This document shows, piece after piece, positions 5,337-31,957 of a DNA stretch of 34,976 nt; the first letter of the stretch is position 1; each line of letters starts with the position of its first letter. The DNA lies in NCBI GenBank assembly GCA_944333345.1, contig CALVKW010000002.1, positions 1-34,976 on the forward strand. Direction: 5' to 3'. The translations under genes were made by a program, and so were the position numbers. Below the pieces are notes generated by a model. The model saw nothing but the letters and a program-made list of their open reading frames with translations. It did no database searches and was not told the DNA's origin. The stretch is from an uncultured Bacilli bacterium. Its GTDB lineage: Bacteria; Bacillota_I; Bacilli_A; RF39; UBA660.

Positions 5337-5401
5337 AAAACACCTCTTTCTTTATTTTATGTTTTAGTATATAATATTATTAGTAATTTTGGAGGGATTA
5401 G

Positions 5402-6582: not shown

Positions 6583-6585
6583 AGG

Positions 6586-6614
6586 TTGTAATTGATTTTA
6601 AAGAATGGTAAAAT
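6586..6614 (+). promoter_or_regulatory. SigA-type promoter for the ireB-ruvX-DUF1292-mltG operon
   Basis: TTGTAA (6586-6591), 17-nt spacer, TAAAAT (6609-6614) preceded by TG (6606-6607). Confidence 0.5.
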
Positions 6615-6643
6615 AGAATTAAATATTATAGTGAGGTGATATT

Positions 6644-9290: not shown

Positions 9291-9302
9291 TGGGGTGGTT
9301 TG

Positions 9303-13570: not shown

Positions 13571-15340
13571 ATGAAAAAAGATTTTATGTTGGAGATGAAA
13601 AGTGAGGTTGAAAGAGTAAAAAAATATTCTTCGCCATTTGTTATTTTATTTAGTGCTTATCCTGGTTCTTTAAAATTTGAATTTGCTAGAGAGTTATCCA
13701 AAAAATTATCTATCTTTTTACTTAGTAATGACTATGTTCGTAATTATTTTTATCAACTTAGTGATGATGCTAATGAAGAGACGCGATTGAAGATTGAGGA
13801 TAAGGTTACTAATATTAATAATGAAAGATTGGAGTATTTGCTTTCTCATGGTATTTCTTTTGTGTATGATCAAAATGTAAATAATTTTCAATGTTTTGAA
13901 AAAATAGAGGAGAAGTTATTAAAACATTCTTATCAAATTATAAAGATTCGTATTCATTCTGAGGATTCTTTAAATATTGATACGATTAGTCATAGGAAAA
14001 TGGATTATTCTAATAAAGATTTTTCTGTCATTGGAGATAATGTTTTTTATGTTAGTAAGTTTCCTCGGGAAGTTTATTTTGAAATAAAAAATAGAAAAGA
14101 AATTGTTTTTGATGATGCGTGGTTTGATTACGTTGTAAAACGTAGAGAGAATGATAAGCAATTTATAAAAGATATGATGCTTGTTATAAATCAAATTAAG
14201 AGACGTTTTTGTTCTTCTATAGAGTTAGAGAAGATAAAAAGTAATTTCTTAAAGATTGAAGATACTTATTCTCCTTATGCTACGAAGAGTAGTGCTGCTA
14301 TTCGATTTGAGAAGATTGATGATGATATAAGGGCACCTTTTTTCCGAGATGTTGATCGTATTATTCATGCTCTTAGTTATACTAGATATGCAGATAAAAC
14401 ACAGGTCTATTCTTTTAAAGAGAACGATCATATTAGTGAAAGGATGCTTCATGTACAGTTGGTAAGTAAAGTCGCACGTACTATTGGAAGGGCTTTAAAT
14501 TTAAATTGCGATTTAATTGAAGCTATTGCTTTGGGACATGATGTTGGGCATACTCCTTTGGGCCATACGGGAGAGGCATTGCTTAATGAAATTTCTATCA
14601 AAGAATTGGGGGAATCATTCGCTCATAATATTCAGGGAGTTCGTCATTATATGGAAGTTGAGAATAATGGCAATGGCCTTAATTTAACTGTTCAAGTTCT
14701 TGATGGTATTATGTGTCATAATGGAGAGATGTTATCAAATGTTTATACCCCAGTTAAGAAGACTAAAGAGGAATTTTTATCACAATATCAAAATGCTTAT
14801 CATGATTTAAAAGAATCTAGTCATAATCATCCAATGACTTTAGAAGGATGCGTTGTTCGCATTAGTGATATTGTTGGTTATATTGGTCGAGATATTGAAG
14901 ATGCTATTGAACTTGGATTGTTCCGTCGAGAAGAACTCCCTAAAGAAATTACTGATGTATTGGGCAATACAAATAGTTCGATTATGAATACTGTTATTTT
15001 AGATATTATAGAAAACAGCTTGAATCATCCTTACATTGCCTTAAGTGACGATGTTTATCATGCTTTGTTTGCTCTGAAAAAATTTAATGGAAAAAAAATT
15101 TATAGTAAAAGTATGTGCCCGAAAGATATTGCATATTATCGTGAAGGGATGAATAAACTATATCATCTTTATTTAAATGATATAAAGCGTCAAAACACAT
15201 CTAGTATTATTTATACTTTATTTTTAAATGCTCAGAGTTCTCGTTATTTAACTTCTACCAATGATAAGCGAATGGTTATTGATTTTATTGCAGGCATGAC
15301 GGATGATATGTTTGTTAGAGAAATTGAGCGAGAGCTATAG
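13571..15340 (+). CDS. HD-domain dNTP (dGTP) triphosphohydrolase-like protein with an N-terminal ~200-aa degenerate P-loop-kinase-like extension
   Basis: 'HVQLVSKVARTIGRAL...AIALGHDVGHTPLGHTGE' fits the HDxGHxPFGHxGE dNTPase signature, with the C-terminal 'DFIAGMTDDMF'. The N-terminal 'PFVILFSAYPGSLKFEFAREL' sits where a Walker A would be but lacks GK[ST]. Confidence 0.8.
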   Translation: MKKDFMLEMKSEVERVKKYSSPFVILFSAYPGSLKFEFARELSKKLSIFLLSNDYVRNYFYQLSDDANEETRLKIEDKVTNINNERLEYLLSHGISFVYDQNVNNFQCFEKIEEKLLKHSYQIIKIRIHSEDSLNIDTISHRKMDYSNKDFSVIGDNVFYVSKFPREVYFEIKNRKEIVFDDAWFDYVVKRRENDKQFIKDMMLVINQIKRRFCSSIELEKIKSNFLKIEDTYSPYATKSSAAIRFEKIDDDIRAPFFRDVDRIIHALSYTRYADKTQVYSFKENDHISERMLHVQLVSKVARTIGRALNLNCDLIEAIALGHDVGHTPLGHTGEALLNEISIKELGESFAHNIQGVRHYMEVENNGNGLNLTVQVLDGIMCHNGEMLSNVYTPVKKTKEEFLSQYQNAYHDLKESSHNHPMTLEGCVVRISDIVGYIGRDIEDAIELGLFRREELPKEITDVLGNTNSSIMNTVILDIIENSLNHPYIALSDDVYHALFALKKFNGKKIYSKSMCPKDIAYYREGMNKLYHLYLNDIKRQNTSSIIYTLFLNAQSSRYLTSTNDKRMVIDFIAGMTDDMFVREIEREL

Positions 15341-16925: not shown

Positions 16926-18482
16926 ATGATTATCAGGAAACCGTATGCTTTTTTAATTAAACATTTTAGAAAAATTCATATCTTTTTATTACTTTTGTGT
17001 GGTTATGTTTATTATAAAAATATGCAAACTCGTTCCTTTGTGTCTGAGTTTTTACAGTTAGAGTCTTATGATGCTTATTATGAACCAATTACTAATTATG
17101 CTAGTTTTTTGGCTATCATTTTTTTAATTATTATTATTGCTCTTTCGATTACTTTAATTATTTTATTGCGACATAAAAAGAAACCTTGGAAATTATATAT
17201 TGTTCCGGCTATTTCTTATTTGTTTTTATTAGTTATATTCTTTTTTACTATTTCTTATTTTTCGAGTTATCGAGAGGGTAGTGGTACTACCGTTATACGT
17301 GCTCTTAATGATTTGTTGTTTATGGCAACTATTCCGCAATACATTGTTATTGTTATTTTATTGGTTCGTATTTTTGGTATTGATTTAAATAAGTTTGATT
17401 TTAAGTCTGATCAGGAATATTTGGAACTTAATGCGGAAGATAGAGAAGAAGTAGAAATTAATATTGATGTAGATAAGGAAAGTTTTAAAAGAGCTTTTAA
17501 AAGGTTAAAACGTAATATTGGTTATGTTTATCAGGAACATAAACTTATTTTTCATGCTATTAGTGTTATTTTTGTTGTTTTTAGTGTGATATCTATTTAT
17601 AATTATGTTTTTATTGTTCATAAATCTTATCAGGAGGGAGATACCTTTCAAAGTAGTGGATATTCTATTACTGTGCATCATAGCTATTTTACAAATAAGG
17701 ATTATAGTGGAACCGTGATTTCTAATAGTAGTAACTTTATTATATTAGATCTCACTATTCAAAATAATACTTCTCAAAGAAATGTTAATTTTAATCGATT
17801 TCATATTATGAACGGAACAGAAAATTATTCTCAAACTTATCGTACTTATCAGCTTGAATTTCAAGACTTAGGTCAGACTTATGATAAGCTTACTTTGAAA
17901 AACGGTGAGAGTCAAAGATTACTGATGGTTTATCGTGTTGCAAAAGATTTAGATCCTTCTAAGTTTGTTCTTTATTATCAAGAGTTGGATAATAATCGTC
18001 CTTATTTAAGAAAAATTAAATTGAATGTAGAAGATTTAAGTGAAATTAAAAAACAAGGTGAAAAGTTATTGCAAGAGGAAGAAGTTATTAAATTTGGAGA
18101 AGAAGAAATATCTTTTTCGATAGAAGAATATTTTCTAACTAATCAAATTAGTTATAATTCTAGGGTTTGTTCTAGTAGTAATAATTGTTATTCTAAAGCG
18201 AATGTTATGTATGCAGATTCTAACCGATTATTCTTGCAAATTTTCTTTACTTCTGATTATTTTACGGGTAAAGATTTCGTTGACTTTTCTAAGGAATATG
18301 GTAAAATTGATTATATAGATAATAAAGGGGAATATCATGAACTTTCCGTTGTGGATGCAGTTAATTATAATTATGATGGAAATTATATGTATTTAGATGT
18401 CCCTATAGAATTAGCAGATGCAAATGAGATTCGGTTGGTATATACGGTGAGAAATCAAGAGTATACTTACAGACTAAAATAA
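16926..18482 (+). CDS. Polytopic membrane protein with a large beta-rich extracytoplasmic C-terminal region; first gene of the accessory supercluster
   Basis: RBS AGAGGGTG. About 4 N-terminal TM helices, a charged linker, and a further TM 'LIFHAISVIFVVFSVISIYNYVFIV'. The region 'SNFIILDLTIQNNTSQ...GESQRLLMVYRV' is reminiscent of DUF4352/Ig-like domains (weak). Confidence 0.65.
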   Translation: MIIRKPYAFLIKHFRKIHIFLLLLCGYVYYKNMQTRSFVSEFLQLESYDAYYEPITNYASFLAIIFLIIIIALSITLIILLRHKKKPWKLYIVPAISYLFLLVIFFFTISYFSSYREGSGTTVIRALNDLLFMATIPQYIVIVILLVRIFGIDLNKFDFKSDQEYLELNAEDREEVEINIDVDKESFKRAFKRLKRNIGYVYQEHKLIFHAISVIFVVFSVISIYNYVFIVHKSYQEGDTFQSSGYSITVHHSYFTNKDYSGTVISNSSNFIILDLTIQNNTSQRNVNFNRFHIMNGTENYSQTYRTYQLEFQDLGQTYDKLTLKNGESQRLLMVYRVAKDLDPSKFVLYYQELDNNRPYLRKIKLNVEDLSEIKKQGEKLLQEEEVIKFGEEEISFSIEEYFLTNQISYNSRVCSSSNNCYSKANVMYADSNRLFLQIFFTSDYFTGKDFVDFSKEYGKIDYIDNKGEYHELSVVDAVNYNYDGNYMYLDVPIELADANEIRLVYTVRNQEYTYRLK

Positions 18483-18492
18483 GGAGATTTAT

Positions 18493-20295
18493 ATGGATAA
18501 AAAGAGAGTAGTGAAATACCTTAAAATTGCTATTGTATGTATCGTAGTCGCATTGTTTTTATGGTTTTTAGTGATTCATCCTCTTCTTACTTTTAAAGGA
18601 TATGAAAATCAAATTGAAAGTGCGGCGAAAAGATATTTTGAACTTAATGAGAGTCAATTGCCAACTGGAACTAGAGTTAAGACCCTTAGTGTTCAAGAGT
18701 TATTTGATCAAGCTTATTTAAAGGAAGATTTTTATGTTCCTTTTTCTAAGAAACCTTGTTCTATTACAGAAAGTTGGGTAAAGGTTAGAAAAGAAGATGG
18801 GGAATATAAATATTATACTTATTTGCAATGTGGTGTATTATCCTCTTTAGTTGATCATGAAGGTCCAGAAATTATTTTAAATGGTGACGATGAAATTACG
18901 ATTGATCAAGGTGATAAGTATGAAGAATTAGGAGTTAAAAGTGTTGTTGATAATTCTGATGGTAAGATGAATGTAGATGATGTTGAAATTGATTCTAGTG
19001 ATGTCAATACAAATGTTACTGGTACTTATAAAGTTACTTATACTACTCGTGATAGTTTGAATAATCGAACTGAAAAAGTAAGGGAAGTAAGCGTTGTTTC
19101 TAGAATTAAAAATATCGTAAAGAATAATACTGGTGATTTAGGAGTTTATACCGGTTCTAATCCTAATAATTATATGTATTTTTCTGGTATGGTATTTAGA
19201 ATAATTGGGCTTGATGGTGATAATGTTCGTATTGTTGCTGAGGAAGATATTAGTAATGTTAATTATTCTGCTATTGATGATTGGCTAGAATATTATTATG
19301 ATCATTTGACTGATAAGGCTAAGGATTATATTGTTGAAAATAAATATTGTAATATGAAATTAGATGATAATAGTGTTGGTAGTGTTACGGATTGTAGTTC
19401 TTATACTGGAAATCGTAGTGTTGCTATTTTATCAGCAAATGATATTAATCAGGCACAGGGGGATGATGGTAATTATTTATATCCGCTTAGTATCTCTTGG
19501 GTATTAAATACTAAGAATAAAGACGAGGCTTATACAACACGCAATTTCTTTTATAATTCTTCTTCTAATTATATGAGTTTTGATAAAGATTATAATTTTG
19601 GGGTTCGTCCTGTTCTTACTATTCAAGGAGATGTTTTTGTAGTAGATGGTGATGGTACGAAAGAAGACCCATATTCTATTGGCGATTTTACTTATGCTAA
19701 AACTGGAGATAAGGTAAATAGTAGATATAGTGGTGAATTTTTAACTTATTCTGGTATTTTATGGAGAATTATCGATGTTGAAAAAGGTGGAGTTACTAAA
19801 ATTATTTCTACTTCTACCTTAAACAGTGATGGTCAAAAAATACAAACTCATTATACTACCGAAGGAGAACGTAAGATTTATAATCCTAAACAACGAGGAA
19901 ATATTGGTTATTTTATTAATAATCAGGCTAGACAATATATTGATACCGACTATCTTGTTACTCATGAAGTAGAAGTTCCTATTTATAAAAATGAAATAAA
20001 ATATGGTAAAGAAGTGGATACGAAAACTTATGATGTTTTATTAGCTGCTCCTAATATGTATGAGATGTTTAGCGCTTTTGAATTTAATAGTTCTACTTTA
20101 CATTCTTATTGGTTGATTAATTCTTCTCGTCAAAGTAATACGAAAGCGGTTATTGCTGATCTTGGTACATCTTTGTATGGAAATATATATGATAATACTG
20201 ATTATGGTGTACGTCCTGTTGCATTTTTAGATGAAAATTGTACTATTGTTAGGGGAAATGGTACATTTAATAATCCATATTCTATTGCGAAGTAA
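18493..20295 (+). CDS. Membrane-anchored modular surface protein: pilin-head-like N-domain, Ig-like (DUF5011-type) domain, two tandem ~190-aa 'GVRPV' modules
   Basis: N-terminal TM 'IAIVCIVVALFLWFLVI'. 'EGPEIILNGDDEITIDQGDKYEELGVKSVVD...TGTYKVTYTTRDSLNN' matches the DUF5011-type Ig pattern. Modules aa ~205-396 and ~400-600 both run Y..(F/Y)SG..(F/W)RII ... SYW/SWVLN ... (F/Y)GVRPV ... G(D/N)GT..(D/N)PYSI. Confidence 0.7.
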   Translation: MDKKRVVKYLKIAIVCIVVALFLWFLVIHPLLTFKGYENQIESAAKRYFELNESQLPTGTRVKTLSVQELFDQAYLKEDFYVPFSKKPCSITESWVKVRKEDGEYKYYTYLQCGVLSSLVDHEGPEIILNGDDEITIDQGDKYEELGVKSVVDNSDGKMNVDDVEIDSSDVNTNVTGTYKVTYTTRDSLNNRTEKVREVSVVSRIKNIVKNNTGDLGVYTGSNPNNYMYFSGMVFRIIGLDGDNVRIVAEEDISNVNYSAIDDWLEYYYDHLTDKAKDYIVENKYCNMKLDDNSVGSVTDCSSYTGNRSVAILSANDINQAQGDDGNYLYPLSISWVLNTKNKDEAYTTRNFFYNSSSNYMSFDKDYNFGVRPVLTIQGDVFVVDGDGTKEDPYSIGDFTYAKTGDKVNSRYSGEFLTYSGILWRIIDVEKGGVTKIISTSTLNSDGQKIQTHYTTEGERKIYNPKQRGNIGYFINNQARQYIDTDYLVTHEVEVPIYKNEIKYGKEVDTKTYDVLLAAPNMYEMFSAFEFNSSTLHSYWLINSSRQSNTKAVIADLGTSLYGNIYDNTDYGVRPVAFLDENCTIVRGNGTFNNPYSIAK

Positions 20296-20299
20296 GTAG

Positions 20300-21109
20300 G
20301 TGATTAGTGTGAGTAAAAGAACAAGAATGTTAATTTTAAAGAAAAAGAAAGTGTTCTTATTGATAGGGATTCTATCTTTTTTGTGTTTTATTAGTGCAAT
20401 TGGTTTTCTGTTGTTTTATGATTATTATCCTGTAGAATCTAGGGTTAGTAATGTGGAGCGGTATGCTTCTAGCGATTCTAGTGATTATACTACGGTTGGG
20501 TGGCTTCGAGTGCAAGGCACTAATATTGATTATCCGGTTATTTATGCACCAGATTATGATTTAAGTATGAAAACAGATGATTTTGTTTGGACCGAGGTAA
20601 GCAGTGATAGATTATTAAATAAAGTTAATATTATTGGACACAATATATTAAATTTATCCACTCATCCCCTTGTTACTTCAGAAAATCATAAACGTTTTGA
20701 ACAGTTAATGAGTTTTGTATATTTAGATTTTGTAAAAGAAAATAAATATATTCAATATACTTTCCAAGATAAGAATTATATTTATAAAATATTTTCTATC
20801 TCCTTTGTTGATCATGATGATATAGGGTTGTATGCGTTCGAAGATTATACAAAGGATGAAATGAATGATTATATACAACAGTCACTTCAAGATAGTATAT
20901 TTGAGTTTGATATAGATGTTGATGAAGATGATAAAATTATTTCTTTGGTTACTTGTACTAGAATGTTTGGATATGGTAATGATATTGAGTTTAGAGTCGA
21001 TGCAAGATTGGTTAGAGAAGGTGAAATGAAAATGAATTACGGTGTTCAAAAAAGCGATAAGTATCAAGAAATTGATGATATTATGAAAGGTGGGGAAAAT
21101 AATGTATAA
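20300..21109 (+). CDS. Class B sortase-like cysteine transpeptidase (membrane anchored)
   Basis: Collinear with S. aureus SrtB as I remember it: 'TVGWLRVQGTNIDYPVIYA' (cf. IVGWIKLSGTSLNYPVLQG), 'VNIIGHNI' (catalytic His), 'KIISLVTCTR' (TLxTC Cys) and 'EFRVDARLV' (Arg). The start is uncertain: GTG 20300, GTG 20309 (RBS AGGTGA 5 nt upstream) or ATG 20327. Confidence 0.8.
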   Translation: MISVSKRTRMLILKKKKVFLLIGILSFLCFISAIGFLLFYDYYPVESRVSNVERYASSDSSDYTTVGWLRVQGTNIDYPVIYAPDYDLSMKTDDFVWTEVSSDRLLNKVNIIGHNILNLSTHPLVTSENHKRFEQLMSFVYLDFVKENKYIQYTFQDKNYIYKIFSISFVDHDDIGLYAFEDYTKDEMNDYIQQSLQDSIFEFDIDVDEDDKIISLVTCTRMFGYGNDIEFRVDARLVREGEMKMNYGVQKSDKYQEIDDIMKGGENNV

Positions 21110-24011
21110 GCATAGAAAAAAGAGAATATTAGGGGTATTAATTATTTTTGCTTTTGTTGTTGCTATTGGTTCTTTTGTTGGTATTCATAATCTGTTAGCA
21201 ACTAAGGAAACGACTAATGTTTCTAGAACGAAAACAGCAGCAAAGACTACAGATGGTAGTAAATGTAAAGATGTTGCTTATCTTCGTGATCATTATAAAG
21301 TACAGGTTGATTATGAGGTTACTGATACTTCACTTATTGCGCATCTTACTGCTGAAAAGGGGTCCTTTTCTATCGATAATTGGAGTAGTGATATTGATAA
21401 TCCATTTCTTGTTAATCCTCAACAAGCCGGGGTGCTTTCTAAAGATAATCCGATTGATTTAGTTTTTAGAAAAGATTCTAGTGCTAGTGTCGTTGTACAT
21501 TTTATATTGGCAGAAACTGATGAATTGTGTTTATCTTATAATGATGCTACTACGGATGAAACTGGGAAAAAGGTTGGTACTTATGACTTTAATATGAATT
21601 TTGAATTGAATGATTTAACTAGTACTTCCCTTGAGGTTAATAATGAAAATTATAATGGTATGTGTCGAGTTATTCGTGATGGAACTAATTTTAGCGATTA
21701 TTCTTCTTATTTAAAAGGAATTACTTCTGCTGATATTGAGAAGTATAATGCTACTACTAATAGTAAGGCATTGGATCATTATCGTACTATTTTACCGTTT
21801 TGTTTCCCAGATACGTCAACAGGCGGAATACCTAGTGTTACCTTTACTTATGATGATGAAACTTTAGGAGGAATGATTGTTGCGGCTGTTTCTAGTTTTA
21901 AGATAATTAATTCTTCTGGTTCTACAACGTCTAGACCTGATGGTGACGCTTTTATGGAAGCTTTTCAAGATGCCAAAGATGCTGCTTTTGGTTCAGGACA
22001 TAATTATACGATACCTGAGGGCGCTACGTTAGAGCAAATTAAGAGTATTCTTAGTGCTGATAATAAGTTGACTTGTGATTGGAAATTACAACCTCAGAAG
22101 GATGAGGCTGGTAATATTATTGATTATTATGTAAATAAAGATTATTATTACGCTATTCAGACTGAGGAGGAAGAACTTACTTATGAACATCAGTATACTG
22201 GTGGTACTCAGTATACTGATGGAGGGGCTTGCAAGCGTACTTGTGAAGAGTCTGTCGTTGTAGAGTATGGACCTCCAGTTGCTTCCAAAGCTGGCCTTTG
22301 TTTTGAATACAAAGTTAAAGTTACGAGTAGAGTAGTTTGTAATACTGATGTAAAAGGGTTAATTGCTCCTCCTATTACTTCTGTTTGTACACCTGTACCT
22401 ATTTGTAATGACATTGCTGGTTTTGAAAATCAAGGTGGACCTACGGAAGAGTATGATGCTTGTATTCAAGAATGTGATGGTGGAAAATATTCACAATCTT
22501 GTAGTAATAAATGTTATGATGAAGTTTATGGTGATGATTCTAAGAAAGAAAGTAATCCATTGGCATTGAATTATGAGGATGCAGTGGTATCTCCGGTTGC
22601 TATTGATTTCCCTGGTTATGCTGGAAAATATAAATGGAATGGAAATGTAATTTATTGGGAAAATTCTGGTACCAGTGAAACTTATGGTCGTTGGTATAGT
22701 TATGGTAGTCGTGATCAACGTACTAGATCTGATCATAGTTCTGGTGCTTATCATGCTGCAGATAATGGATTTAAGAGAGAAGTATATGGTAATGATGATT
22801 GTGACGATCCTTGTGAGTGGACCAGTTGTTCGAAAGATACTTATTTAAATGAGGAGGAAGCAAGCAAATCTTACTCACATAATCTACAGATTTATAATAA
22901 TGCTTTATCTTCTTGTCAAGCTGCTGCATCATGTACTACCAAGACTGCCTATTTTGAAATTAGTGTTGATTATTTACACGCTAATGAATCCGGAAATATT
23001 GTAAAGGAGAATATTAAATTTCCTGCTTCTACCCAAGCATCGTTACCTAGTGGTGATAATCAAACTACTTCTAGTCCACAGGGTACGAATATTTTCTTAA
23101 GTGATGGAGAAGATTATAAGGGTTATGATGGTTGTTATGTAAGTAGTGATGCTAAAGATTGGTATCAGGCTGAATGGAGTTTCCCTGGTACATGGATTAA
23201 TAATAAAACTGGTGAAATTTCTTATGAAGATAAGATGGATGATAAGTTATGGCACTTACGAGAAGATAAATTCTGTATTCCATTAGATGCTCAAAGTGTT
23301 AATACAAAATGGTGGGAATGGAGTGAAGTTGGTAGAGAGTGTTATACCGAAGCTGAAATAGAAGAAGAAATAAAAGATAATTATAATATTCATGCAAAAA
23401 CAACTAATTTTGGATATTTTGGTTGGGACTTTACCTTCGAGTGTTTTTATGCATTGAGAAATGAAGTTTGTGATACTAGTATTGATGGATGTTGTGATGG
23501 CCCTGATCCAGAACCTGATCCTCCTGGTCCTGGTACAACGATTCCTACTAGAGATTATGCATTTAGAATTATAGACACTTCTGATATGTTCCCTGAAACG
23601 AGTACTTCTACTGAAGAGGACAGTGTGGGTGAAGGCTATTCTAAGACCGGAAGAACTCCTGGTTATAACTGGAATTTGAATGGTGAGGTTATTGGAGCCC
23701 TAACTGCTAAGAATAGTAATTACGCGATTAACCCTACTGCTTTGATTGCTGATATTCAACAACGTCAATCTTCCATTTATGATGGTACGAAATATCTAGA
23801 TTATCGTTTCGTGCTAGATACTGAAGATTTGGCAGAAATTAGAAGCTATAATAACCAAAGATATAATGGTAGTCGTGATATGCAATATACTGATTATTTG
23901 GGTAATACAACTATTAAGAATGGTGTTACTGTATATGAAAGTGAATTAATTAATAAATATGCAACGAAGCAAGGAACTCCTGGAGTTAATAATGATGGGG
24001 AGGATGATTAA
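21102..24011 (+). CDS. Large (~970 aa) cysteine-rich exported/membrane-anchored protein of unknown family, with a Pro-rich hinge (CCDGPDPEPDPPGPG)
   Basis: ATG 21102 (RBS AAGGTGGGG 7 nt upstream) is preferred over GTG 21090, giving an 8-nt overlap with the sortase gene. N-terminal 'KKRILGVLIIFAFVVAIGSFVG' anchor. I count 27 Cys by hand after the anchor, many as close pairs. No domain recognised. Confidence 0.7.
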   Translation: MYKHRKKRILGVLIIFAFVVAIGSFVGIHNLLATKETTNVSRTKTAAKTTDGSKCKDVAYLRDHYKVQVDYEVTDTSLIAHLTAEKGSFSIDNWSSDIDNPFLVNPQQAGVLSKDNPIDLVFRKDSSASVVVHFILAETDELCLSYNDATTDETGKKVGTYDFNMNFELNDLTSTSLEVNNENYNGMCRVIRDGTNFSDYSSYLKGITSADIEKYNATTNSKALDHYRTILPFCFPDTSTGGIPSVTFTYDDETLGGMIVAAVSSFKIINSSGSTTSRPDGDAFMEAFQDAKDAAFGSGHNYTIPEGATLEQIKSILSADNKLTCDWKLQPQKDEAGNIIDYYVNKDYYYAIQTEEEELTYEHQYTGGTQYTDGGACKRTCEESVVVEYGPPVASKAGLCFEYKVKVTSRVVCNTDVKGLIAPPITSVCTPVPICNDIAGFENQGGPTEEYDACIQECDGGKYSQSCSNKCYDEVYGDDSKKESNPLALNYEDAVVSPVAIDFPGYAGKYKWNGNVIYWENSGTSETYGRWYSYGSRDQRTRSDHSSGAYHAADNGFKREVYGNDDCDDPCEWTSCSKDTYLNEEEASKSYSHNLQIYNNALSSCQAAASCTTKTAYFEISVDYLHANESGNIVKENIKFPASTQASLPSGDNQTTSSPQGTNIFLSDGEDYKGYDGCYVSSDAKDWYQAEWSFPGTWINNKTGEISYEDKMDDKLWHLREDKFCIPLDAQSVNTKWWEWSEVGRECYTEAEIEEEIKDNYNIHAKTTNFGYFGWDFTFECFYALRNEVCDTSIDGCCDGPDPEPDPPGPGTTIPTRDYAFRIIDTSDMFPETSTSTEEDSVGEGYSKTGRTPGYNWNLNGEVIGALTAKNSNYAINPTALIADIQQRQSSIYDGTKYLDYRFVLDTEDLAEIRSYNNQRYNGSRDMQYTDYLGNTTIKNGVTVYESELINKYATKQGTPGVNNDGEDD

Positions 24012-24016: not shown

Positions 24017-24481
24017 ATGAATAAAGCAATGTTAACGGTTGGTATTATCATCTTGAGTTTAGCAACATTATTAATGATTAATATTATTTCCAATTATTCA
24101 ACAGGTAGTGAGTTAGATTACTACCTGGTGAAGGAAACATCGGAAGCTGCTATGATTGATGCTATTGATGTTGCGTATTATCGTGAAAATGGTTTGCTTC
24201 GAATTGATAAAGAAAAATTTGTAGAAAGTTTTATTAGAAGGTTTGCTGATACTGTTGATAACACTAGAAATTATCAGGTTTCATTTTATGATTTAAATGA
24301 AGTTCCACCTAAAGTTAGTGTGAAAGTTGATTCTTCTACTGTATTGAGTTTCAAGGGATCTAATTTGGAGATGACTACGCAACTTGATGCTATTTTAGAA
24401 AATACTTATGATACTGATCCATTAGTTACTAATGAACTTACGGACTTTAATAGTGATATGGGTAAACCTATAGAAGAATAG
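24017..24481 (+). CDS. Small membrane-anchored protein, candidate minor pilin/pseudopilin
   Basis: 154 aa. An N-terminal hydrophobic helix 'AMLTVGIIILSLATLLMINII' is followed by a ~125-aa globular part. It sits immediately upstream of the cpaB-like gene. No Gly cleavage motif. The function call is weak. Confidence 0.45.
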   Translation: MNKAMLTVGIIILSLATLLMINIISNYSTGSELDYYLVKETSEAAMIDAIDVAYYRENGLLRIDKEKFVESFIRRFADTVDNTRNYQVSFYDLNEVPPKVSVKVDSSTVLSFKGSNLEMTTQLDAILENTYDTDPLVTNELTDFNSDMGKPIEE

Positions 24482-24495: not shown

Positions 24496-25314
24496 ATGGG
24501 AAATCTTGGTGTTGGAATTAAGAAGTTTTTGTCGAATAAGAATACTGTTACTGTTGTTGGAGTTGTTGTTGCTGTTGTTGTTCTTTATGTTGCTTACAAT
24601 TTACGTGTTCAAGCCGCAGTTAATCCTATTAGTGTTCCTTATGCGAGACAACAAATTAACCCTGGGGTACAAATTACGTCAGATATGGTAGGAACTATGG
24701 AGGTTCCTCCTTCTATGCTTGAGGGAGATGTTATTACGAATCAAGCAGATGTGATTGATAAATATTCAAATGCGGATACACTAATTCCTGAAGGTAGTTT
24801 ATTCTACTCTAGACAAGTAGTTGAGAAGGAACAATTACCTGCTAATATTATACTTGATTATCCTAAAGGATATGTTTTATATAATATGCCTGTGAATACG
24901 GAAAGTACTTATGGTAATTCTATTTATCCTGGTAATTATATAGATATTTATTTAAGAATTACCAGAAAAGCGGTGGAAGGGCAAACTACTACGGATACTC
25001 AGGGAGCAGAGTTAATGCAATATGGTAAGTTTTTGGAAAATGTTCAAGTATTAGCTGTTAAAGATGGTTCTGGTCGACCAGTATTTTCTAATTTAGATGA
25101 GCAAAGAACACCAGCTATGATTGTTTTTGCACTTCCAGAAGAGTATTATATTTTACTTAAAAAGGCTAGTTATTTAACATTATATGATTCTGAACTTGTC
25201 CCTGTTCCAACAAATGAGAGTTTGCAGGATGAACCTGGAGATTTGGAAATGAGTAGTGAAAGTTTACGTGATTGGATTAATAGTGCTACTTATTGGGATG
25301 AAAGTATTGGTTAG
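24496..25314 (+). CDS. Flp pilus assembly protein CpaB/RcpC-like (SAF + beta-clip)
   Basis: N-terminal TM 'VTVVGVVVAVVVLYVAY'. 'PYARQQINPGVQITSDMV...VPPSMLEGDVI' is SAF-like. 'GYVLYNMPVNTES..GNSIYPGNYIDIY...ENVQVLAVKDGSG' follows the CpaB pattern (PG..VD...V.VLAV). Confidence 0.7.
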   Translation: MGNLGVGIKKFLSNKNTVTVVGVVVAVVVLYVAYNLRVQAAVNPISVPYARQQINPGVQITSDMVGTMEVPPSMLEGDVITNQADVIDKYSNADTLIPEGSLFYSRQVVEKEQLPANIILDYPKGYVLYNMPVNTESTYGNSIYPGNYIDIYLRITRKAVEGQTTTDTQGAELMQYGKFLENVQVLAVKDGSGRPVFSNLDEQRTPAMIVFALPEEYYILLKKASYLTLYDSELVPVPTNESLQDEPGDLEMSSESLRDWINSATYWDESIG

Positions 25315-25346: not shown

Positions 25347-26813
25347 ATGAACGAGAATATTTTTGATAAATTAGATTTCGGTCCTTTACGACCATTGTTA
25401 GATAACGATGATATAACTGATGTTTCTTTTGATAATAATGGTCAAATCTGGGTTCGTTCTTTAACTCAAGGTTCTTTGCGTGTTGAAGTTCAAGGGCTTA
25501 CTCCTGAATTTGTAGAGAAACTTGCTTTTCAATGTTCTAATGTTATGGGAACTACATTCAATAATGCCAAACCGTTTTTGGATGCTGAATCTGCTGAGTT
25601 GCGTTTGAACTTTGTTCATCCTTCGATTGCCACTAATGGGATTGCGATGGTTATTCGTAAAACTCCGGCAAAGATTAGACTTGAGAAGGATAAGTTGTTG
25701 AAGGATGATTACTTTACTCAAGATATTCATGATATTTTAATTAAATGTGTTGAGGGTCACTGTAACATTATCGTTTGTGGAGAGACTGGTTCTGGTAAAA
25801 CGGAATTTGTTAAATATCTTGCTAGTCATACTCGTACAGATGAAAAGATTATTACTATTGAAGATACTTTGGAATTACATTTGGATCGTATCTTTCCTCA
25901 ACGTGATATTGTGGTAATGAAGACGAATAATGTAGCTAGTTATACGGATGTTTTAGTTACTTGTATGCGTCAGAATCCTAAATGGATATTGTTATCTGAA
26001 GTTCGTAGTGCAGAGGCTGTTTCTGCAGTGCGTAATTCTATTTCATCGGGACATAATATTTTGTCTACTATTCATGCTGATAAAGCATCGGCTATTCCTT
26101 ATCGTATGTATAGTTTGATGGAAACCGATTTGGATGTTAATCAGTTCTTGAACACAATTTATCGTTATATTCAGTTAGGAGTTCATATTAAAGCCTATTA
26201 TAGTAAAGAAAAAGGTAAGTTCCACCGTGAAGTGGATGAAGTGTGTGAATTTTATGTAGATGAGAATAACAAACCACAATGTCGTATTATTTATCAGAAA
26301 TTATTCGGACAAGAACCTGTATTGAGAAAACCTAGTCCACACTTAATTGAATACTTAGAAAATCAAAATATTGATATTAGTGCTATTACTGAACATTTGA
26401 GTGATGATTTACCGTTTCATGATGATTTAGAAAGGGAAGAATATATGGAAGAACATAAGGATGGTGATGATGCAGGTGAAGGTAGTACTACAACAACTGC
26501 TCCTGTTACTTCGATTCTTTCCAATGATGTAGCACTAGCTACTGATTCAACGATTGCTACAACATCGCCTGGAGTTGAAGCCGTTGTACAACAGACAGTT
26601 ACAACACCGGTTGTTAGTCCTGTTAGTCAGCAAGCTGTTGCAACTGTTCCTGCTAATATGGTTGATCCTGATGCTGTTGCTAATGAAGTAAATGTCGCTA
26701 CCGTTGATTCGAATGTTCTTCCTACGGTTGGAGTGTCTAATAACAATGTTACGGTTAACTCAACACCAATTTCTCCATCTGTTGATTTTACTTCTTTAGA
26801 TAATTTAGAATAG
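25347..26813 (+). CDS. tadA: TadA/CpaF-type secretion ATPase (T2SS-E/VirB11 superfamily) with a ~115-aa T/S/V/A/P-rich C-terminal tail
   Basis: Walker A 'CGETGSGKT' (25776-25802), Asp box 'IITIEDTLEL', Walker B 'WILLSEVR' and His box 'SGHNILSTIHAD'. It is followed by two platform-protein genes. The tail 'GEGSTTTTAPVTS...VTVNSTPISPS' runs from ~26460. Confidence 0.9.
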   Translation: MNENIFDKLDFGPLRPLLDNDDITDVSFDNNGQIWVRSLTQGSLRVEVQGLTPEFVEKLAFQCSNVMGTTFNNAKPFLDAESAELRLNFVHPSIATNGIAMVIRKTPAKIRLEKDKLLKDDYFTQDIHDILIKCVEGHCNIIVCGETGSGKTEFVKYLASHTRTDEKIITIEDTLELHLDRIFPQRDIVVMKTNNVASYTDVLVTCMRQNPKWILLSEVRSAEAVSAVRNSISSGHNILSTIHADKASAIPYRMYSLMETDLDVNQFLNTIYRYIQLGVHIKAYYSKEKGKFHREVDEVCEFYVDENNKPQCRIIYQKLFGQEPVLRKPSPHLIEYLENQNIDISAITEHLSDDLPFHDDLEREEYMEEHKDGDDAGEGSTTTTAPVTSILSNDVALATDSTIATTSPGVEAVVQQTVTTPVVSPVSQQAVATVPANMVDPDAVANEVNVATVDSNVLPTVGVSNNNVTVNSTPISPSVDFTSLDNLE

Positions 26814-26827: not shown

Positions 26828-27730
26828 ATGTATTTAGAAGAATTAATTTTTCTAATTGTATTAGTTATTGTTATTGTCCTTTATCGTAATTATAAAGGAC
26901 AAAATGTAAGAAAATTTATTACTAGCCAAGTACAAAGTGTTTATGATAAATTTGCTCCTTATTCTTTTAAAGTTGTACGTGAAAAGACGAAAGAGTTAGG
27001 TCAAGAATATACACCTAGGCAATATACAATCCAAGTTGTTGTTATGGGAGCTTTTGCTGGTGTTGTTAGTTATTTATATTTCTATAATTTATTTGTTTCC
27101 TTGATTTATATGATTGTTGTTGTTATGTTTATTCCGTACTTATCGTATTTACGATGTAAAAGAGTATATAGTGAATTTATATTTGAACAAATTCAGGTAT
27201 ATACCTCTAATACTATTATGGAATTTGCGACGACTCAATCTTTTGTTAAAGCATTAGAGGGGGTTCGTAATTCTGGTATTTTGGAGGATCCTGTTAAAAG
27301 TGATGTTGATCATATGATTGAACTTGCTTATCAGAATGGTAGTATTGATGAGTCTTTAACTTATATGGCACAGTTATATCCATATTATATAGTAAAAAAT
27401 ATGCATCAACTTTTTTTACAAATTACTAAAGAAGGTGCAAGAAACTCTATGGAATCTTTGGATAATATGCAACTTGATATCGATATGTTAGTTGAAAGTG
27501 TTTATCGAGATCGAATTGAAAGGGCATCTTTCCATCGATCATTTTTACAATTTGGTATTATGCTTTATTTAATGGTTATGTTAGTGCAATATTTGTTAGG
27601 GCGAGAAACTTATTTGATTATGCTGGATCGATGGTATGTCAAAGTTTTACTACATGGGGTTTTGATTATTAATACTTATTTCTTATTAAAAGGCGAAAAA
27701 TATTATAATGAGAATGTAGGTGCTGAATAA
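26828..27730 (+). CDS. TadB/TadC-family (T2SS-F-like) pilus platform membrane protein
   Basis: 300 aa. N-terminal TM, a second hydrophobic block, a ~130-aa cytoplasmic helical domain ('FEQIQVYTSNTIMEFATTQSFVKALEGV...') and C-terminal TM helices. The architecture and the position after tadA fit TadB. Confidence 0.65.
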   Translation: MYLEELIFLIVLVIVIVLYRNYKGQNVRKFITSQVQSVYDKFAPYSFKVVREKTKELGQEYTPRQYTIQVVVMGAFAGVVSYLYFYNLFVSLIYMIVVVMFIPYLSYLRCKRVYSEFIFEQIQVYTSNTIMEFATTQSFVKALEGVRNSGILEDPVKSDVDHMIELAYQNGSIDESLTYMAQLYPYYIVKNMHQLFLQITKEGARNSMESLDNMQLDIDMLVESVYRDRIERASFHRSFLQFGIMLYLMVMLVQYLLGRETYLIMLDRWYVKVLLHGVLIINTYFLLKGEKYYNENVGAE

Positions 27731-28615: not shown

Positions 28616-28798
28616 ATGAAAGCAGCAACAGGTGAATTAAACTTAACAGTTATTACTCTTATTGCCATTGCAGCAGTAATTGGATTTTTCTGGATTATGT
28701 GGCCTAATATTCAAAAGGCAATTAATAGTCAATGGAATAATATTTCTGGTACAGAAGGTCCTAGCGCAGGAGTTATTATTGTTGATTATAATAAATAA
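28616..28798 (+). CDS. flp: Flp-size (60 aa) type IVc-like pilin
   Basis: 'MKAATG/ELNLTVITLIAIAAVIGFFWIMW': a short basic leader, Gly, then a ~22-aa hydrophobic helix and a short tail. The size, its position after tadC and its own promoter fit a major Flp pilin. The canonical G/xxxxEY motif is absent. Confidence 0.6.
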   Translation: MKAATGELNLTVITLIAIAAVIGFFWIMWPNIQKAINSQWNNISGTEGPSAGVIIVDYNK

Positions 28799-28817: not shown

Positions 28818-29261
28818 ATGCGGGATGCTTTTGGTGGAGTTGTCAATTTAGCAATGATTGTAGTGTTCTTGGTTTTGGTTTGTGGCTATTTGGCATTTAA
28901 TGTTAATTATACGAAAGCATTCCGTGTTAAAAACTACATCATTACATCAATTGAACAGTATGAAGGTAATTGTGATGAAGGAACAACTTGTTATCAAAAG
29001 ATTAGTGATTATATTAATCGCATAGGTTATAACGCTCCAGATTTTACTATGGATGATCCTGACTATAAGTGTATGCATGGTTATTGTTATAAGCAATTTG
29101 ATGCTTCTAACGAAGCTGGTGTGTCTGAAGGAGAAAAACAAGTGTATTATCGAGTTGTTACTCAAATTAACATTGATATTCCAATTATTAATAGAATTAT
29201 GCCGGGTTTAAGAATTTTTCAAGTTTCTGGTAATACGAAGTTAATTACACTGTTTAATTAG
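28818..29261 (+). CDS. TadE-like pseudopilin (minor pilin)
   Basis: 147 aa. 'MRDAFGG/VVNLAMIVVFLVLVCGYLAF' has the same G-x-[LV]-N-L-x-x-I start as the flp-like product. It is followed by a globular part with 4 Cys, and sits immediately after flp. Confidence 0.5.
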   Translation: MRDAFGGVVNLAMIVVFLVLVCGYLAFNVNYTKAFRVKNYIITSIEQYEGNCDEGTTCYQKISDYINRIGYNAPDFTMDDPDYKCMHGYCYKQFDASNEAGVSEGEKQVYYRVVTQINIDIPIINRIMPGLRIFQVSGNTKLITLFN

Positions 29262-29275: not shown

Positions 29276-30256
29276 ATGAATGTTATTGTTAGTAATGTAC
29301 AACGAAATATTTTATCTGGGTTGGACGTTGATGTTATTAAAAGTATTTCTGGAGAATATGATGCTAATGAATTGGTGGAAATGTTTAAAAACTTTTTTTA
29401 TAATAAAATGATTTTAGATGTTACTGCTATTAAAGATTTTCATAATATAAAGAATTTTCAGACTATTGCCATGGGATTAGATGTTGAAAAGATAGTATTC
29501 TTTTTGCCAGAGGGAACAGATGTTTGCACCTCAGCTTTTTTATCTAAATTAGTTTCTATGGGAATTTATAATTTTACTACTAATGTCGAAGGTGTTAAAT
29601 ATTTGCTGGAGCATCCAAATACTTATAAACAGGTTGCTCATATTCAACAGTTAAATGATGTTTCTAATACTGTTGCTCATAAAGTGGAAAATGGTGCGAA
29701 GATAATTGGTGTTAGAAATGTTACGGAGCATGCTGGAGCAACTACATTTATTTATATTTTGAAGAAAGAATTGAAGGTTCATTTTGGCGATAGTATTATT
29801 GCTTTAGAGATTAACCGAAGTGATTTTCAATATTTCGGTGATAAGAATATGGTGTCTATTACCGCAGATCAAATTCATACTTATTTGACAAGATTTGCGG
29901 GTGCTACCGTAGTCTTAATTGATTTGAATGATTGCCCTGATGATTCTTTTTGCGATGATGTGTTGTATTTATTGGAACCATCTACTATTAAATTAAATAG
30001 ATTAATGAGAAGAAACCATATGATTTTTTCTAAGCTTCAACAAAAAAAGATAGTTTTGAACAAAAGTTTATTAACAAATAAAGATATCACAGATTTCGAA
30101 TATGAAGCAAAGGCTAAAGTATTTTATAATATGCCTCCTTTAGATGAACGTAAAAAAAATCCTATTTTTGATGATTTCTTATCTAGATTAGGATTGATTC
30201 AATCTAAGGAAGAAAAGAAAGAAACTGGTAAAATATTTGGTTTATTTAGAAGATGA
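29276..30256 (+). CDS. TadZ/CpaE-like protein: receiver-like N-domain plus ParA/MinD-like domain with a degenerate Walker A
   Basis: 'KIIGVRNVTEHAGATTFIYILKKEL...IIALEINRSD...TVVLIDLND' is collinear with the '..G.KGGvGaTT.a.nLA...v.lvDlD' region of CpaE/TadZ, but the KGG lysine is missing. The N-terminal ~125 aa has a flavodoxin-like alternating pattern. Confidence 0.45.
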   Translation: MNVIVSNVQRNILSGLDVDVIKSISGEYDANELVEMFKNFFYNKMILDVTAIKDFHNIKNFQTIAMGLDVEKIVFFLPEGTDVCTSAFLSKLVSMGIYNFTTNVEGVKYLLEHPNTYKQVAHIQQLNDVSNTVAHKVENGAKIIGVRNVTEHAGATTFIYILKKELKVHFGDSIIALEINRSDFQYFGDKNMVSITADQIHTYLTRFAGATVVLIDLNDCPDDSFCDDVLYLLEPSTIKLNRLMRRNHMIFSKLQQKKIVLNKSLLTNKDITDFEYEAKAKVFYNMPPLDERKKNPIFDDFLSRLGLIQSKEEKKETGKIFGLFRR

Positions 30257-30287: not shown

Positions 30288-30314
30288 ATATGTGATGTCG
30301 AAGGAGAGTTGTTT

Positions 30315-30674
30315 ATGTTAGATTTATTTCAAATTGGAGACGTAGGAGAAGGAACTATCGATGAAAACTGTGGTGGTTTAGCACCTGTTGTCAAAATTGT
30401 TAAATTTGGAGTTTTCCCTATTGTTCAAATTGGTATTCCAATTTTATTAATTGTATATGGGACTATCGATTTAGGTAAAGCCGTTATTTCAAGTGATGAA
30501 AAAGAAGTCAAGCAAGCGCAAAGTCGTTTGATTAAAAGATGTATTTATGCAGCAGCTATCTTCTTTATTACTACAATTGTTACATTAATCATGACTTTGG
30601 TTGGTACTGGAGCAGATCCTACAGAAACTGATACTAATAGTTGGGCAAACTGCTGGAATACTCTTGAAAGATAA
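30315..30674 (+). CDS. Small 2-TM hairpin protein, VirB2/TrbC-like (pilin-like conjugal transfer protein) candidate
   Basis: ATG 30315 (RBS AAGGAGAG 6 nt upstream) is preferred over TTG 30309. Two TM helices ('FPIVQIGIPILLIVYGTIDLG', 'CIYAAAIFFITTIVTLIMTLVG') flank 'SSDEKEVKQAQSR'. It is the first gene before VirB6/VirB3/VirB4-like genes. Confidence 0.5.
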   Translation: MLDLFQIGDVGEGTIDENCGGLAPVVKIVKFGVFPIVQIGIPILLIVYGTIDLGKAVISSDEKEVKQAQSRLIKRCIYAAAIFFITTIVTLIMTLVGTGADPTETDTNSWANCWNTLER

Positions 30675-30680
30675 TTTACA

Positions 30681-30707
30681 TAGCAAAATAATTGCTATTT
30701 TTTTTTT
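30681..30707 (+). terminator. Weak hairpin + T10 run after the VirB2-like gene (possible partial terminator)
   Basis: TAGCAA (30681-30686) / TTGCTA (30692-30697), 5-nt loop, T-run 30698-30707. The stem has only 6-7 bp and 2 GC pairs. Confidence 0.3.
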
Positions 30708-30720
30708 ATTCTGTTATACT
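30692..30720 (+). promoter_or_regulatory. Possible internal promoter overlapping the hairpin
   Basis: TTGCTA (30692-30697), 17-nt spacer, TATACT (30715-30720) with TG at 30712-30713. Confidence 0.4.
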
Positions 30721-30754
30721 TATTCTGTATAAATGTTTATATGGAGTGGTGACA

Positions 30755-31957
30755 GTGAAACATTTTAAGTTTTCTTTATTTATTTTTGTCTTTGGAATTG
30801 TGCTTTTTATTCCATATAATACAAATGCTTTGGGAAACAAAGTAGTAAATTGTAACTATCAATTTACGAATCAAAATGATCAAGATATTGAATTGACTTA
30901 TGAAGTTTATTCTGATGGAAGTGTTTCTCTTCCTTTTGCAGATGCTTCTAGTTATGTTAATGATGGACGCACTTGGTATCATAGTGATGGTTTTTCTAAT
31001 ACATTTTATAATATTGCAAAATTAAATTCTTCTACCATTACTTGTCCATCTATTTATGTGCAAGAGGATGATTCTTCTGTGACAATATATCCTAACCCGC
31101 TTTATAAGGATTCTTGTACTGGAAAGTGTTATAATATTAGCGCTGCTACACCTAAACTTTCTAGTTGGGCAACAGATACAGGGATTGAAGCGAAAAGGGT
31201 AATCTCTACTTGTACAGGTTCTAGTATGGGATTTTATAATAGACAAAGTTATATCTTTCCTTATTTTAGAATGTTTTCTGATGGTACAAAAGAGTGGTCT
31301 ATTGATGGGAATACTTATGTTCCGGTAACGGATGCTATTACTGGTAGGATTAATGCTAGCGAAACTTTTTCTATTACGGTTAACGATTCTTTATTAAATT
31401 CTATTTATAGTTCTTCTAGACCATCTTGTCCTACTAGGATTTATCGTTGCGTTACGGAAACCGAGAATGGCTATTCTTATGAGTTGTCTACTTCCCCAAA
31501 TCAATGCTCTGGGGATGAGTTGAGTACTAATGATAGTCAAGAGTATGGTTCTAACTACTATAATGCGGCTTATGGTGATCCAGGTGATGGAAGTGCTAGT
31601 AGCGAGGATGGATCTGTTAGTATTGATGATTTGAGAGAAGAATTAGAAGTTTATAATCAAGATGCCGATTGTAATTCTATTTTGGGAAGTACGGAGGATG
31701 AAAATTCCGTTGCGTGGTTGTTGCAGCAATTATTAAACTATATAAAGATATTAGGACCGATGTTAGTGGTTATTTTAAGTAGTATGGATTTTGCGAAAGC
31801 AATTATAGCTAGTGATGATGAAAATATGAAAAAGGCTGAAAAGAAATTGATGATTCGTTTGGTATTGGCTGTTGCTTTATTCTTAATTCCTACATTAGTT
31901 AGTGTTTTATTAAATGTTTTCGGAATTACAACTAATCAGATATGTGGTTTACAGTAA
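30755..31957 (+). CDS. Secreted Cys-rich protein with a C-terminal VirB2-like 2-TM hairpin module
   Basis: GTG 30755 (RBS GGAG 8 nt upstream) gives a clean signal peptide 'KHFKFSLFIFVFGIVLFIPYNTNA/LG'. The track start TTG 30692 lies inside the terminator. I count 10 Cys by hand. The last ~96 aa (31667-31954) align without gaps to the 30315 product. Confidence 0.65.
   Translation: MKHFKFSLFIFVFGIVLFIPYNTNALGNKVVNCNYQFTNQNDQDIELTYEVYSDGSVSLPFADASSYVNDGRTWYHSDGFSNTFYNIAKLNSSTITCPSIYVQEDDSSVTIYPNPLYKDSCTGKCYNISAATPKLSSWATDTGIEAKRVISTCTGSSMGFYNRQSYIFPYFRMFSDGTKEWSIDGNTYVPVTDAITGRINASETFSITVNDSLLNSIYSSSRPSCPTRIYRCVTETENGYSYELSTSPNQCSGDELSTNDSQEYGSNYYNAAYGDPGDGSASSEDGSVSIDDLREELEVYNQDADCNSILGSTEDENSVAWLLQQLLNYIKILGPMLVVILSSMDFAKAIIASDDENMKKAEKKLMIRLVLAVALFLIPTLVSVLLNVFGITTNQICGLQ

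Follow-up and report, generated by a model that had tools for sequence, protein, structure and literature searches.

Class B sortases of known structure, namely SrtB of C. perfringens (5b23, 5yfk), C. difficile (4ux7, 5gyj, 6kyc) and S. aureus (1ng5, 4lfd), are the closest described counterparts of the enzyme analysed here. Its gene lies at 20300..21109 on the + strand of a 34,976-nucleotide stretch of DNA, hereafter termed the window (contig CALVKW010000002.1 of assembly GCA_944333345.1, from an uncultured Bacilli bacterium of the RF39 lineage), within an operon for a Tad-like pilus and a type IV secretion system (T4SS). The window sortase shares with the solved class B sortases the fold (Foldseek E 1e-14 to 1e-11, 16-26% identity), the His-Cys-Arg triad, a TLxTC-like motif (LVTCT) and the N-terminal membrane anchor. 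Unlike standard SrtB, it scores below the TIGR03064 cut-off, carries a C-terminal extension and has no NPxT or (S/P)PxTG substrate encoded next to it. A class B fold within a surface-appendage locus is also found in Spy0129 of S. pyogenes (3psq) and in the type II pilus sortase of S. pneumoniae (4y4q), both of which were among the Foldseek matches. However, in those two loci the sortase polymerises pilins with sorting signals, whereas the filament genes of the window are Tad-like/type IV.

With regard to the operon, the closest described systems are the transfer regions of pLS20-type plasmids. The head-of-operon thioester adhesin of pLS20, TIEpLS20, is described as a protein with a signal peptide and with neither an LPXTG motif nor a transmembrane (TM) segment, which is independent of host sortases and whose attachment that account leaves unexplained (PMC8092201). 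In the pLS20-type gene order, as annotated in pNARUSE, a secreted adhesin comes first, followed by a TadA/VirB11-like ATPase, small pilin-like genes, VirD4, a VirB6-like protein, VirB4 and a wall hydrolase. The best plasmid matches of the window ATPase were pLS20-type Bacillus plasmids (30-36% identity). Identity to a pLS20-type plasmid was 36% for TadA, 27% for VirD4 and 22% for VirB4, but the BLAST matches were limited to these three ATPases and the gene order differs. Moreover, pLS20 has no sortase, and the window locus is chromosomal; no relaxase or integrase was found among the 12 open reading frames (ORFs) downstream (20 kb) in the relative G001, in a search confined to the surroundings of the locus. 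An srtB gene has been described on the C. sordellii plasmid pCS1 (PMC5770547) and on the 'Hodor' megaplasmids (PMC12934698), elements which also carry VirB4/VirD4-type transfer genes. On these elements, as far as the two accounts describe them, the sortase lies outside the transfer operon and canonical signal proteins are encoded on the same element (PMC5770547, PMC12934698), and inactivation of srtB on pCS1 is reported to have had little effect on transfer (PMC5770547). Among 72,556 plasmid records no relative of the window sortase was found (tblastn, E<=1e-3). Finally, the reduced genomes of Patescibacteria, a different phylum, are described as carrying chromosomal T4SS of the monoderm type, which have VirB2-like pilins and mostly lack a relaxase (PMC12102498); the words 'sortase' and 'Tad' are absent from the main text of that report (PMC12102498). 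Titles and abstract openings in the literature yielded no sortase inside a Tad/T4SS operon and no RF39 locus of this kind. Sortase genes on T4SS plasmids are already known; new here is a divergent subfamily with a class B fold and no recognisable substrate, fixed in a pilus/secretion operon.

The sortase gene has a GTG start and encodes 269 amino acids, with an N-terminal TM helix and a conserved C-terminal extension of about 30 residues. The protein passed the Pfam family Sortase (PF04203) marginally, with 27.7 bits against a gathering threshold of 26.6 (residues 70-224), and some orthologues were weaker than E 1e-5 with this family in whole-genome searches, for example that of genome G381. 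In a sequence search of the PDB all 15 matches with E<=1 were sortases, 14 of them named or annotated as sortase B; the top match was C. difficile SrtB (E 1.1e-11), with residues 60-224 of the query collinear with residues 52-211 of the chain. The AlphaFold2 model (30 homologues, mean pLDDT 85.9) consisted of an N-terminal helix (residues 6-39) and a beta-barrel. Against the PDB, it gave 126 Foldseek matches with E<=0.001, and all of the matches listed were sortases; ranks 1-18 were all class B (E 1.6e-14 to 1.1e-9) and class D came next (4.6e-7). The sequence-only reading had classed this ORF as SrtB-type. This was confirmed for the fold and not for the family, since TIGR03064 (SrtB), the sole NCBIfam match, was found with 51.7 bits (E 7e-14) and its curated cut-off of 153.75 bits was not reached. 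The source genome (1.59 Mb, 189 contigs, 63% complete) encodes four further sortases, two of which, on contigs C14 and C29, are true SrtB proteins (158.2 and 169.7 bits, above the TIGR03064 cut-off). The window sortase is only 23-24% identical to them, and they lack its C-terminal extension. Within this extension, which follows the catalytic Arg, residues R239, E242 and Y255 were invariant in 30 sequences, and the model placed a strand at 249-251 and a helix at 255-262. The window sortase belongs to a divergent subfamily of its own and is class B by fold only.

The catalytic site was compared in an alignment of 57 sequences, the window sortase and 56 complete orthologues of other species. In the window sortase, IIGHN begins at residue 111, LVTCT at 216 and RVDARL at 232. 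The catalytic His114 (codon 20639..20641) and Cys219 of LVTCT (codon 20954..20956) were conserved in 57 of 57 sequences, and Arg236 of RVDARL (codon 21005..21007) in 53, being replaced by Lys in three and by Val in one. An apparent Lys at the catalytic Arg was also noticed, in an alignment by eye, in the SrtB paralogue on contig C14 (G000, 6355-7170), which reads ...VIHAKLIK where its paralogue reads ...VLHARLIK. The pairwise dN/dS values against four relatives were 0.18-0.23 for the sortase, about 0.3 for p600 and about 0.5 for p973 (its neighbours, described below) and 0.06-0.17 for core genes; these values are rough because dS is near 1. Stops within the match occurred in six of 65 sortase matches of a family-wide search, five of which were still open over at least 251 residues, and the match in G711 was the only one split into two pieces. 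The sortase had 669 homologues at E<=0.001, and these together with the same gene position in 57 species exclude a chance match. The gene is under purifying selection, and from the conserved triad and this selection the membrane-anchored enzyme looks catalytically active. The earlier claim of an intact-triad sortase inside a Tad-like/T4SS operon has thus held.

The sortase gene is tightly enclosed by its neighbours, with 4 nt before it and an overlap of 8 nt after it. It ends with AAT AAT GTA TAA at 21109, and the following gene, p973, has its ATG at 21102, so that the overlap (21102..21109), as read off the sequence, is the one that had been noted before. The purine-rich sequence AAAGGTGGGG stands directly 5' of this ATG; an alternative GTG start of p973 at 21090 would give a 20-nt overlap with the sortase gene. 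The sortase is translationally coupled to its neighbouring gene.

The gene p973 (21102..24011, + strand) encodes a 970-residue, Cys-rich, fast-evolving secreted protein of unrecognised fold. It had no match in Pfam or NCBIfam, and a search of a protein atlas gave no usable match. Its AlphaFold2 model had a pLDDT of 74, with the C-terminal 170 residues poorly modelled (block means 34-69), and no PDB match at E<=0.001 (best 0.064). Judging by eye from the N-termini, many p973 orthologues seem to carry a cleavable signal peptide and to lack an anchor of their own. The gene on the other side, p600 (18493..20295, + strand), encodes an N-terminally anchored surface protein of 600 residues, composed of a TM segment, a two-Cys module of about 90 residues, an Ig-like domain (Bact_surface_Ig-like, 50.4 bits) and two DUF6273-like domains, each ending with G.GT...PY.I. 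The N-terminal TM segment with the two-Cys module (18493-18870), the Ig-like part and the DUF6273 parts are not unique to p600: they occur in many paralogous surface proteins, and a p600 profile had 1-23 matches per genome in 51 of 52 genomes.

The orthologue search, with one genome per species, yielded 57 loci with a sortase orthologue (37-72% identity) in collinear gene order. They come from metagenome-assembled genomes titled Bacilli, Tenericutes/Mycoplasmatota or 'Candidatus Faecimonas', a genus that the NCBI taxonomy places under Bacilli incertae sedis. In these loci p600 was present in 56, p973 in 55, the DUF5411 gene in 55, tadA in 52 and p121 in 44; most of the misses were at contig ends or at the 10-kb limit, and one of the p973 misses was a 2.6-kb contig. 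Over the whole family, the sortase was found in 60 of 400 genomes (E<=1e-20). Co-occurrence was determined in a sample of 52 genomes picked by presence or absence of DUF5411, blind to the sortase. DUF5411, used as the marker of the locus, was present in 42 of the 49 family genomes of the sample, and three genomes from outside the family had strong matches. The scores of the sortase profile were bimodal (at least 239 bits or at most 63 bits). An orthologue was present in 14 of the 42 DUF5411-positive family genomes, in none of the seven DUF5411-negative ones and in none of the three outgroup genomes. Co-occurrence of the sortase with the tadA locus, raised by the sequence-only reading, was one-sided in this sample: no orthologue occurred without DUF5411, but only 14 of 42 locus-bearing family genomes had one. 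In contrast, its co-occurrence with the two neighbours was strict. All 14 sortase genomes had full-length p600 (at least 536 bits), and none of the 38 others did; their best match was partial (196 bits). p973 (at least 135 bits) was found in 14 of 14 and in 1 of 38, the single exception being a contig-edge fragment in G367, a genome whose genus also includes a sortase-positive one. The p600-sortase-p973 cassette was present twice in G080 (contigs C26 and C30), and an extra p973-like/DUF5411 pair was located 5' of p518 in two loci (L027 and L031).

Twelve loci of the family that lack the sortase were compared with the 57. They kept DUF5411, cpaB, tadA, tadB and tadC as well as most of the downstream genes, and p600, the sortase and p973 were absent from all of them. 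In 10 of the 12, the region 5' of DUF5411 encoded a protein of 208-257 residues that starts with a signal peptide, contains four conserved Cys and has a TM segment and basic tail at its C-terminus; it carried no sortase-type motif and had no homologue in the sortase loci. Moreover, 11 of the 12 encoded one to three big signal-peptide proteins (351-1360 residues) 5' of DUF5411. Units of the small four-Cys protein and a big secreted protein were duplicated in L081-L083, and in L083 DUF5411 was duplicated as well. Hidden Markov models of p973, p600 and p518 had no match among 15 big proteins of the sortase-less loci. With a sensitive whole-genome profile, the last ~200 positions of p973 matched big proteins 5' of DUF5411 in five sortase-less genomes with 28-41 bits, and by these matches p973 shares a C-terminal domain with them. 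The cassette takes the place of the dedicated small anchor protein of the sister loci. In a quick tree of TadA (66 rows, SH-aLRT support only), all 52 sortase-bearing rows clustered on one side of a single branch (SH-aLRT 99), and with two outgroup rows opposite they were nested among sortase-less rows. The sortase, p600 and p973 thus form a head-of-operon cassette specific to one lineage, and these results are consistent with a single origin. The co-occurrence, sister-locus and TadA-tree patterns together make the sortase a part of this cassette and not of the conserved machine. The Tad-like/T4SS operon is widespread in the family and the sortase is not a general part of it; p600 arrived together with the sortase and the present form of p973 in one sub-clade of the family.

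The search pattern for sorting signals was xPx[TSA]x, then a hydrophobic stretch, then a basic tail. None of the 40 raw matches among the 1964 ORFs of the source genome was on the window's contig, in agreement with the earlier statement that no cluster product ends in a canonical signal. No credible canonical signal was found in the 57 orthologous loci (±10 kb) and two downstream extensions either; all four raw matches there were spurious, three of them in short ORFs on the antisense strand and the fourth in a p147 homologue that lacks a TM segment. Likewise, no linked substrate of the NP(Q/K)(T/S)x or (S/P)PxTG type was present in the window, in the 57 loci (±10 kb) or downstream in G001, where the other half of the locus held no sorting signal. 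The idea of a substrate encoded further downstream was thereby lost as far as canonical signals are concerned, and the finding that would have overturned the sequence-only reading, a canonical substrate gene just downstream or loss of the catalytic residues in orthologues, did not turn up. No conserved C-terminal xPx[TS]x motif was detected in the locus products, and by this sign the locus is not that of a sortase-assembled pilus. The residues LPTG at 56-59 of p600 were rejected as a signal because of their wrong spacing and their position next to the N-terminal anchor. A complex prediction of the sortase (45-269) with p973 (370-969), both with alignments, scored 0.00 in both runs, which had no controls, and counts neither for nor against an interaction.

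From 16926 to the contig end (34976), every gene is on the + strand, and the spacing between neighbours ranges from -8 to 100 nt. The block begins with p518 (16926..18482), a multi-pass membrane protein with a DUF4352-like outer domain (24.4 bits, cut-off 25.9). It was present in 54 of the 57 sortase loci, and relatives of 26-29% identity were found in four of the 12 sortase-less loci; p518 is an older, optional component of the locus. Downstream of the cassette follows the core of the locus. It starts with the DUF5411 protein (24017..24481; PF17424, 168.7 bits), which has a pilin-like N-terminal hydrophobic segment, a CpaB/RcpC-like protein (24496..25314; TIGR03177 34.9 bits with a cut-off of 71, RcpC 26.5 bits with a cut-off of 28.8) and a TadA/VirB11-type secretion ATPase (25347..26813; T2SSE 97.5 bits, VirB11 121 bits, the latter below its cut-off). 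The TadB/TadC position is occupied by two polytopic membrane proteins (26828-27730 and 27730-28515). They had no family match, and their putative role is taken from position and hydrophobicity; they were conserved in 50 and 49 of the 57 loci, respectively. The next gene encodes a 60-residue pilin (28616..28798), also called p60, whose leader MKAATGELNLTVI was nearly invariant in 48 sequences; in sortase-less loci the leader reads MKEATGE... The leader consensus, MK(A/E)ATGE(L/A)N, has Glu straight after Gly. The C-terminal part of the pilin is variable, being Cys-rich in most of the sortase-less loci (L070-L083) and Cys-free in the window. It is followed by p147 (28818..29261), a probable TadE-like pseudopilin with a conserved MRDAFGG before a hydrophobic helix, and by p326 (29276..30256), which had no family match and was present in 47 of 57 loci.

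The T4SS part of the operon starts with p121 and p421 (30309..31957), T4SS-pilin-like membrane hairpins, of which p421 matched T4SS_pilin with 19.2 bits, below the cut-off; the p121 profile detected the same module in sister loci. These are followed by a VirB6/TrbL-like protein (31974-34001; TrbL_4 26.0 bits, cut-off 27), a VirB3-like protein (34024-34341) and an N-terminal ORF of VirB4 (34316-34867; 183 residues, VirB4_plasma 52.1 bits, below the cut-off). A separate N-terminal ORF of VirB4 was also seen in the relative locus L068 (3217-3768), where it overlaps the 596-residue ATPase ORF (3765-5555) by 4 nt. In G001 the locus continues with the VirB4 ATPase, a 774-residue protein with a SpoIID domain, a 260-residue protein, the coupling protein VirD4 (T4SS-DNA_transf, 191.7 bits) and a 395-residue DUF6273 protein, and genes for a rhodanese, RmuC, a tRNA synthetase and trigger factor lie 3' of it. 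The locus is a Tad-like pilus and MPF_FATA-type T4SS block, with TadA/VirB11, VirB4, VirD4 and a wall hydrolase on one strand. Upstream of it the window holds housekeeping genes. Amid these, 7 kb 5' of the locus, a 278-residue protein (9300-10136, +) combines a T4SS-pilin-like hairpin (PF18895 23.9 bits, below the cut-off) with an NlpC/P60 hydrolase domain (65.3 bits), and a 589-residue protein (13571-15340, +) combines a Zeta-toxin-like P-loop (23.8 bits) with HD and HD-associated phosphohydrolase domains. RNA libraries from two studies (two runs) yielded short contigs that agree exactly with segments of p600, of the sortase and of p973. They are only a hint of expression; DNA carry-over is possible, and none of them spans a gene junction by 31 nt on each side. 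A scan for promoters and terminators stayed near the level of shuffled sequence (118 vs 101.5±11.7; 8 vs 6.6±2.7).

The reading that we tentatively favour, with a confidence that stops short of even, is that the sortase serves the proteins of its own cassette in cis by means of a non-canonical signal. It is the best supported one because of the strict co-occurrence with p600 and p973, the translational coupling, the replacement of the small anchor protein and the apparent lack of an anchor in p973. The enzyme would act on its partners p600 and/or p973, and its most plausible role would be to tether p973, anchorless in many orthologues, either to the wall or to the membrane-anchored p600. The recognition signal would then differ from the canonical succession of motif, TM segment and basic tail. 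The substrate, its recognition element and the acceptor are all inferred here. A more far-reaching version, which we consider rather doubtful, is that this subfamily recognises a new kind of donor, secreted or N-terminally anchored and without LPXTG-like motif, C-terminal TM segment or basic tail, and that the machine's own contact protein, p973 and/or p600, is fixed covalently to the wall or the filament. If true, it would offer a built-in answer to how transfer machines of the pLS20 type keep their anchorless head-of-operon adhesins on the cell.

Several points weigh against action of the sortase on its own cassette. To our knowledge, all known sortase substrates have a C-terminal membrane-retention segment, and p600 and p973 are without one. 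In p518, p600 and p973, conserved matches to xPx[TS]x are limited to EPISK, VPYSK and FPGTW, all of them internal. The C-terminal G.GT...PY.I.K of p600 is a domain-end motif that is repeated within p600 and in the 395-residue paralogue, and was rejected as a signal. The same applies to the C-terminal G[CV]NN of p973: the big proteins of sortase-less loci end in a similar way, and since they also share the C-terminal domain, the G[CV]NN tail is not specific to the sortase. One locus (L056, RUG14903 contig) is the sole complete one with the sortase and p600 (680 residues) but no p973 match, and its DUF5411 gene starts ~630 nt past the sortase. Moreover, the co-occurrence may reflect shared descent, and if the cassette was gained only once, strict co-occurrence amounts to a single evolutionary observation. 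Finally, the loci in the tree were retrieved by the sortase search, and they cannot show retention inside the clade.

Alternatively, the substrates of the sortase could be conventional sorting-signal proteins with genes in other parts of the genome, on which it would act in trans; its location in the operon would then serve only to co-regulate the wall anchoring of adhesins with the machine. We regard this as somewhat unlikely. Sortases commonly act on unlinked substrates, and C. difficile SrtB, the best PDB sequence match, recognises (S/P)PxTG. In the source genome, eight of the 40 raw signal matches were credible on inspection. Four of these belong to proteins without an adjacent sortase (VPDTS on contig C8, VPNTA on C10, VPNTS on C16 and SPETG on C15), which would be available to an enzyme acting in trans. 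However, the other four adjoin the four other sortases, so that these motif classes are already served: VPDTG on C1 and VPNTS on C99 are paired with the two class C/D-like enzymes (230-234 residues, best models class C/D, below the cut-off), and NPQTY on C14 and NPETN on C29 with the two SrtB proteins. A ninth match, NPETE on C25, reads by eye as a membrane protease with an HExxH motif. Other sortases were found in 40 of 49 family genomes, namely in 13 of 14 sortase-positive and in 27 of 35 sortase-negative ones, and because they are present in both groups general anchoring is independent of the window sortase. Relatives of the SPETG protein, all partial, did not follow the enzyme, being found in 1 of the 14 genomes with the sortase and in 5 of the 35 without it, and the sortase gene stays in the cassette throughout 57 species. 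In favour of action in trans, the locus sortase (orthologue profile, 251 bits) was the sole sortase found in G381, a 95% complete genome with no PF04203 match at E<=1e-5. A profile of the eight signals found no credible signal in G381, and none either in G199, which has four sortases; this profile is too insensitive for its negatives to carry weight. Pfam Gram_pos_anchor recovered three of the eight credible signals of the source genome.

The sequence-only reading had also considered maturation of filament subunits, that is cleavage, head-to-tail cyclisation or polymerisation of the pilin, the pseudopilins or the T4SS-pilin-like proteins. Such a role might be suggested by the position of the sortase inside the operon and by p121, in which conserved Cys near both termini suggest that its ends are close together; other enzymes are known to cyclise conjugative pilins. 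However, these proteins are alike in loci with and without the sortase, and in the sister loci, which have no sortase orthologue, a pilin with the same leader is retained together with the p147-like protein, DUF5411 and the T4SS-pilin modules. Moreover, p60, p147, DUF5411, p121 and p421 contain no conserved xPx[TS]x motif, and a prepilin peptidase gene is present elsewhere in the source genome. Filament-subunit maturation is therefore disfavoured, and we consider it improbable.

Equally improbable is a hydrolase or merely structural partner that performs no transpeptidation, for instance by shedding or processing its N-terminally anchored neighbour or as a scaffold: it would agree with the lack of a recognisable donor or acceptor signal, with the conserved clade-specific C-terminal extension, which could dock a partner, and with the NP[IV][ST]V found just outside the TM segment of the clade's CpaB, but a purely structural role is opposed by the intact triad and purifying selection, the CpaB motif was rejected as a signal, having S/T in only 66% of sequences and other forms as the norm in CpaB N-termini of sortase-less loci, and we know of no sortase that acts only as a sheddase.

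Sortases are defined by C-terminal sorting signals, and the prediction of their substrates, the annotation of surface proteomes and sortase engineering rest on that rule. Here, at least 57 species of uncultured and abundant gut bacteria have, fixed within a pilus/secretion operon, a sortase whose triad is intact and which has no such signal close by. The enzyme either acts on unlinked substrates, from an unusual place in the genome, or is an exception to the sorting-signal rule. The comparison of loci narrows the search for a substrate to two partner proteins, and the sister species are natural minus-sortase controls. The finding is also relevant to the way in which conjugation-type machines that lack a relaxase and are fixed in the chromosome present their contact proteins.

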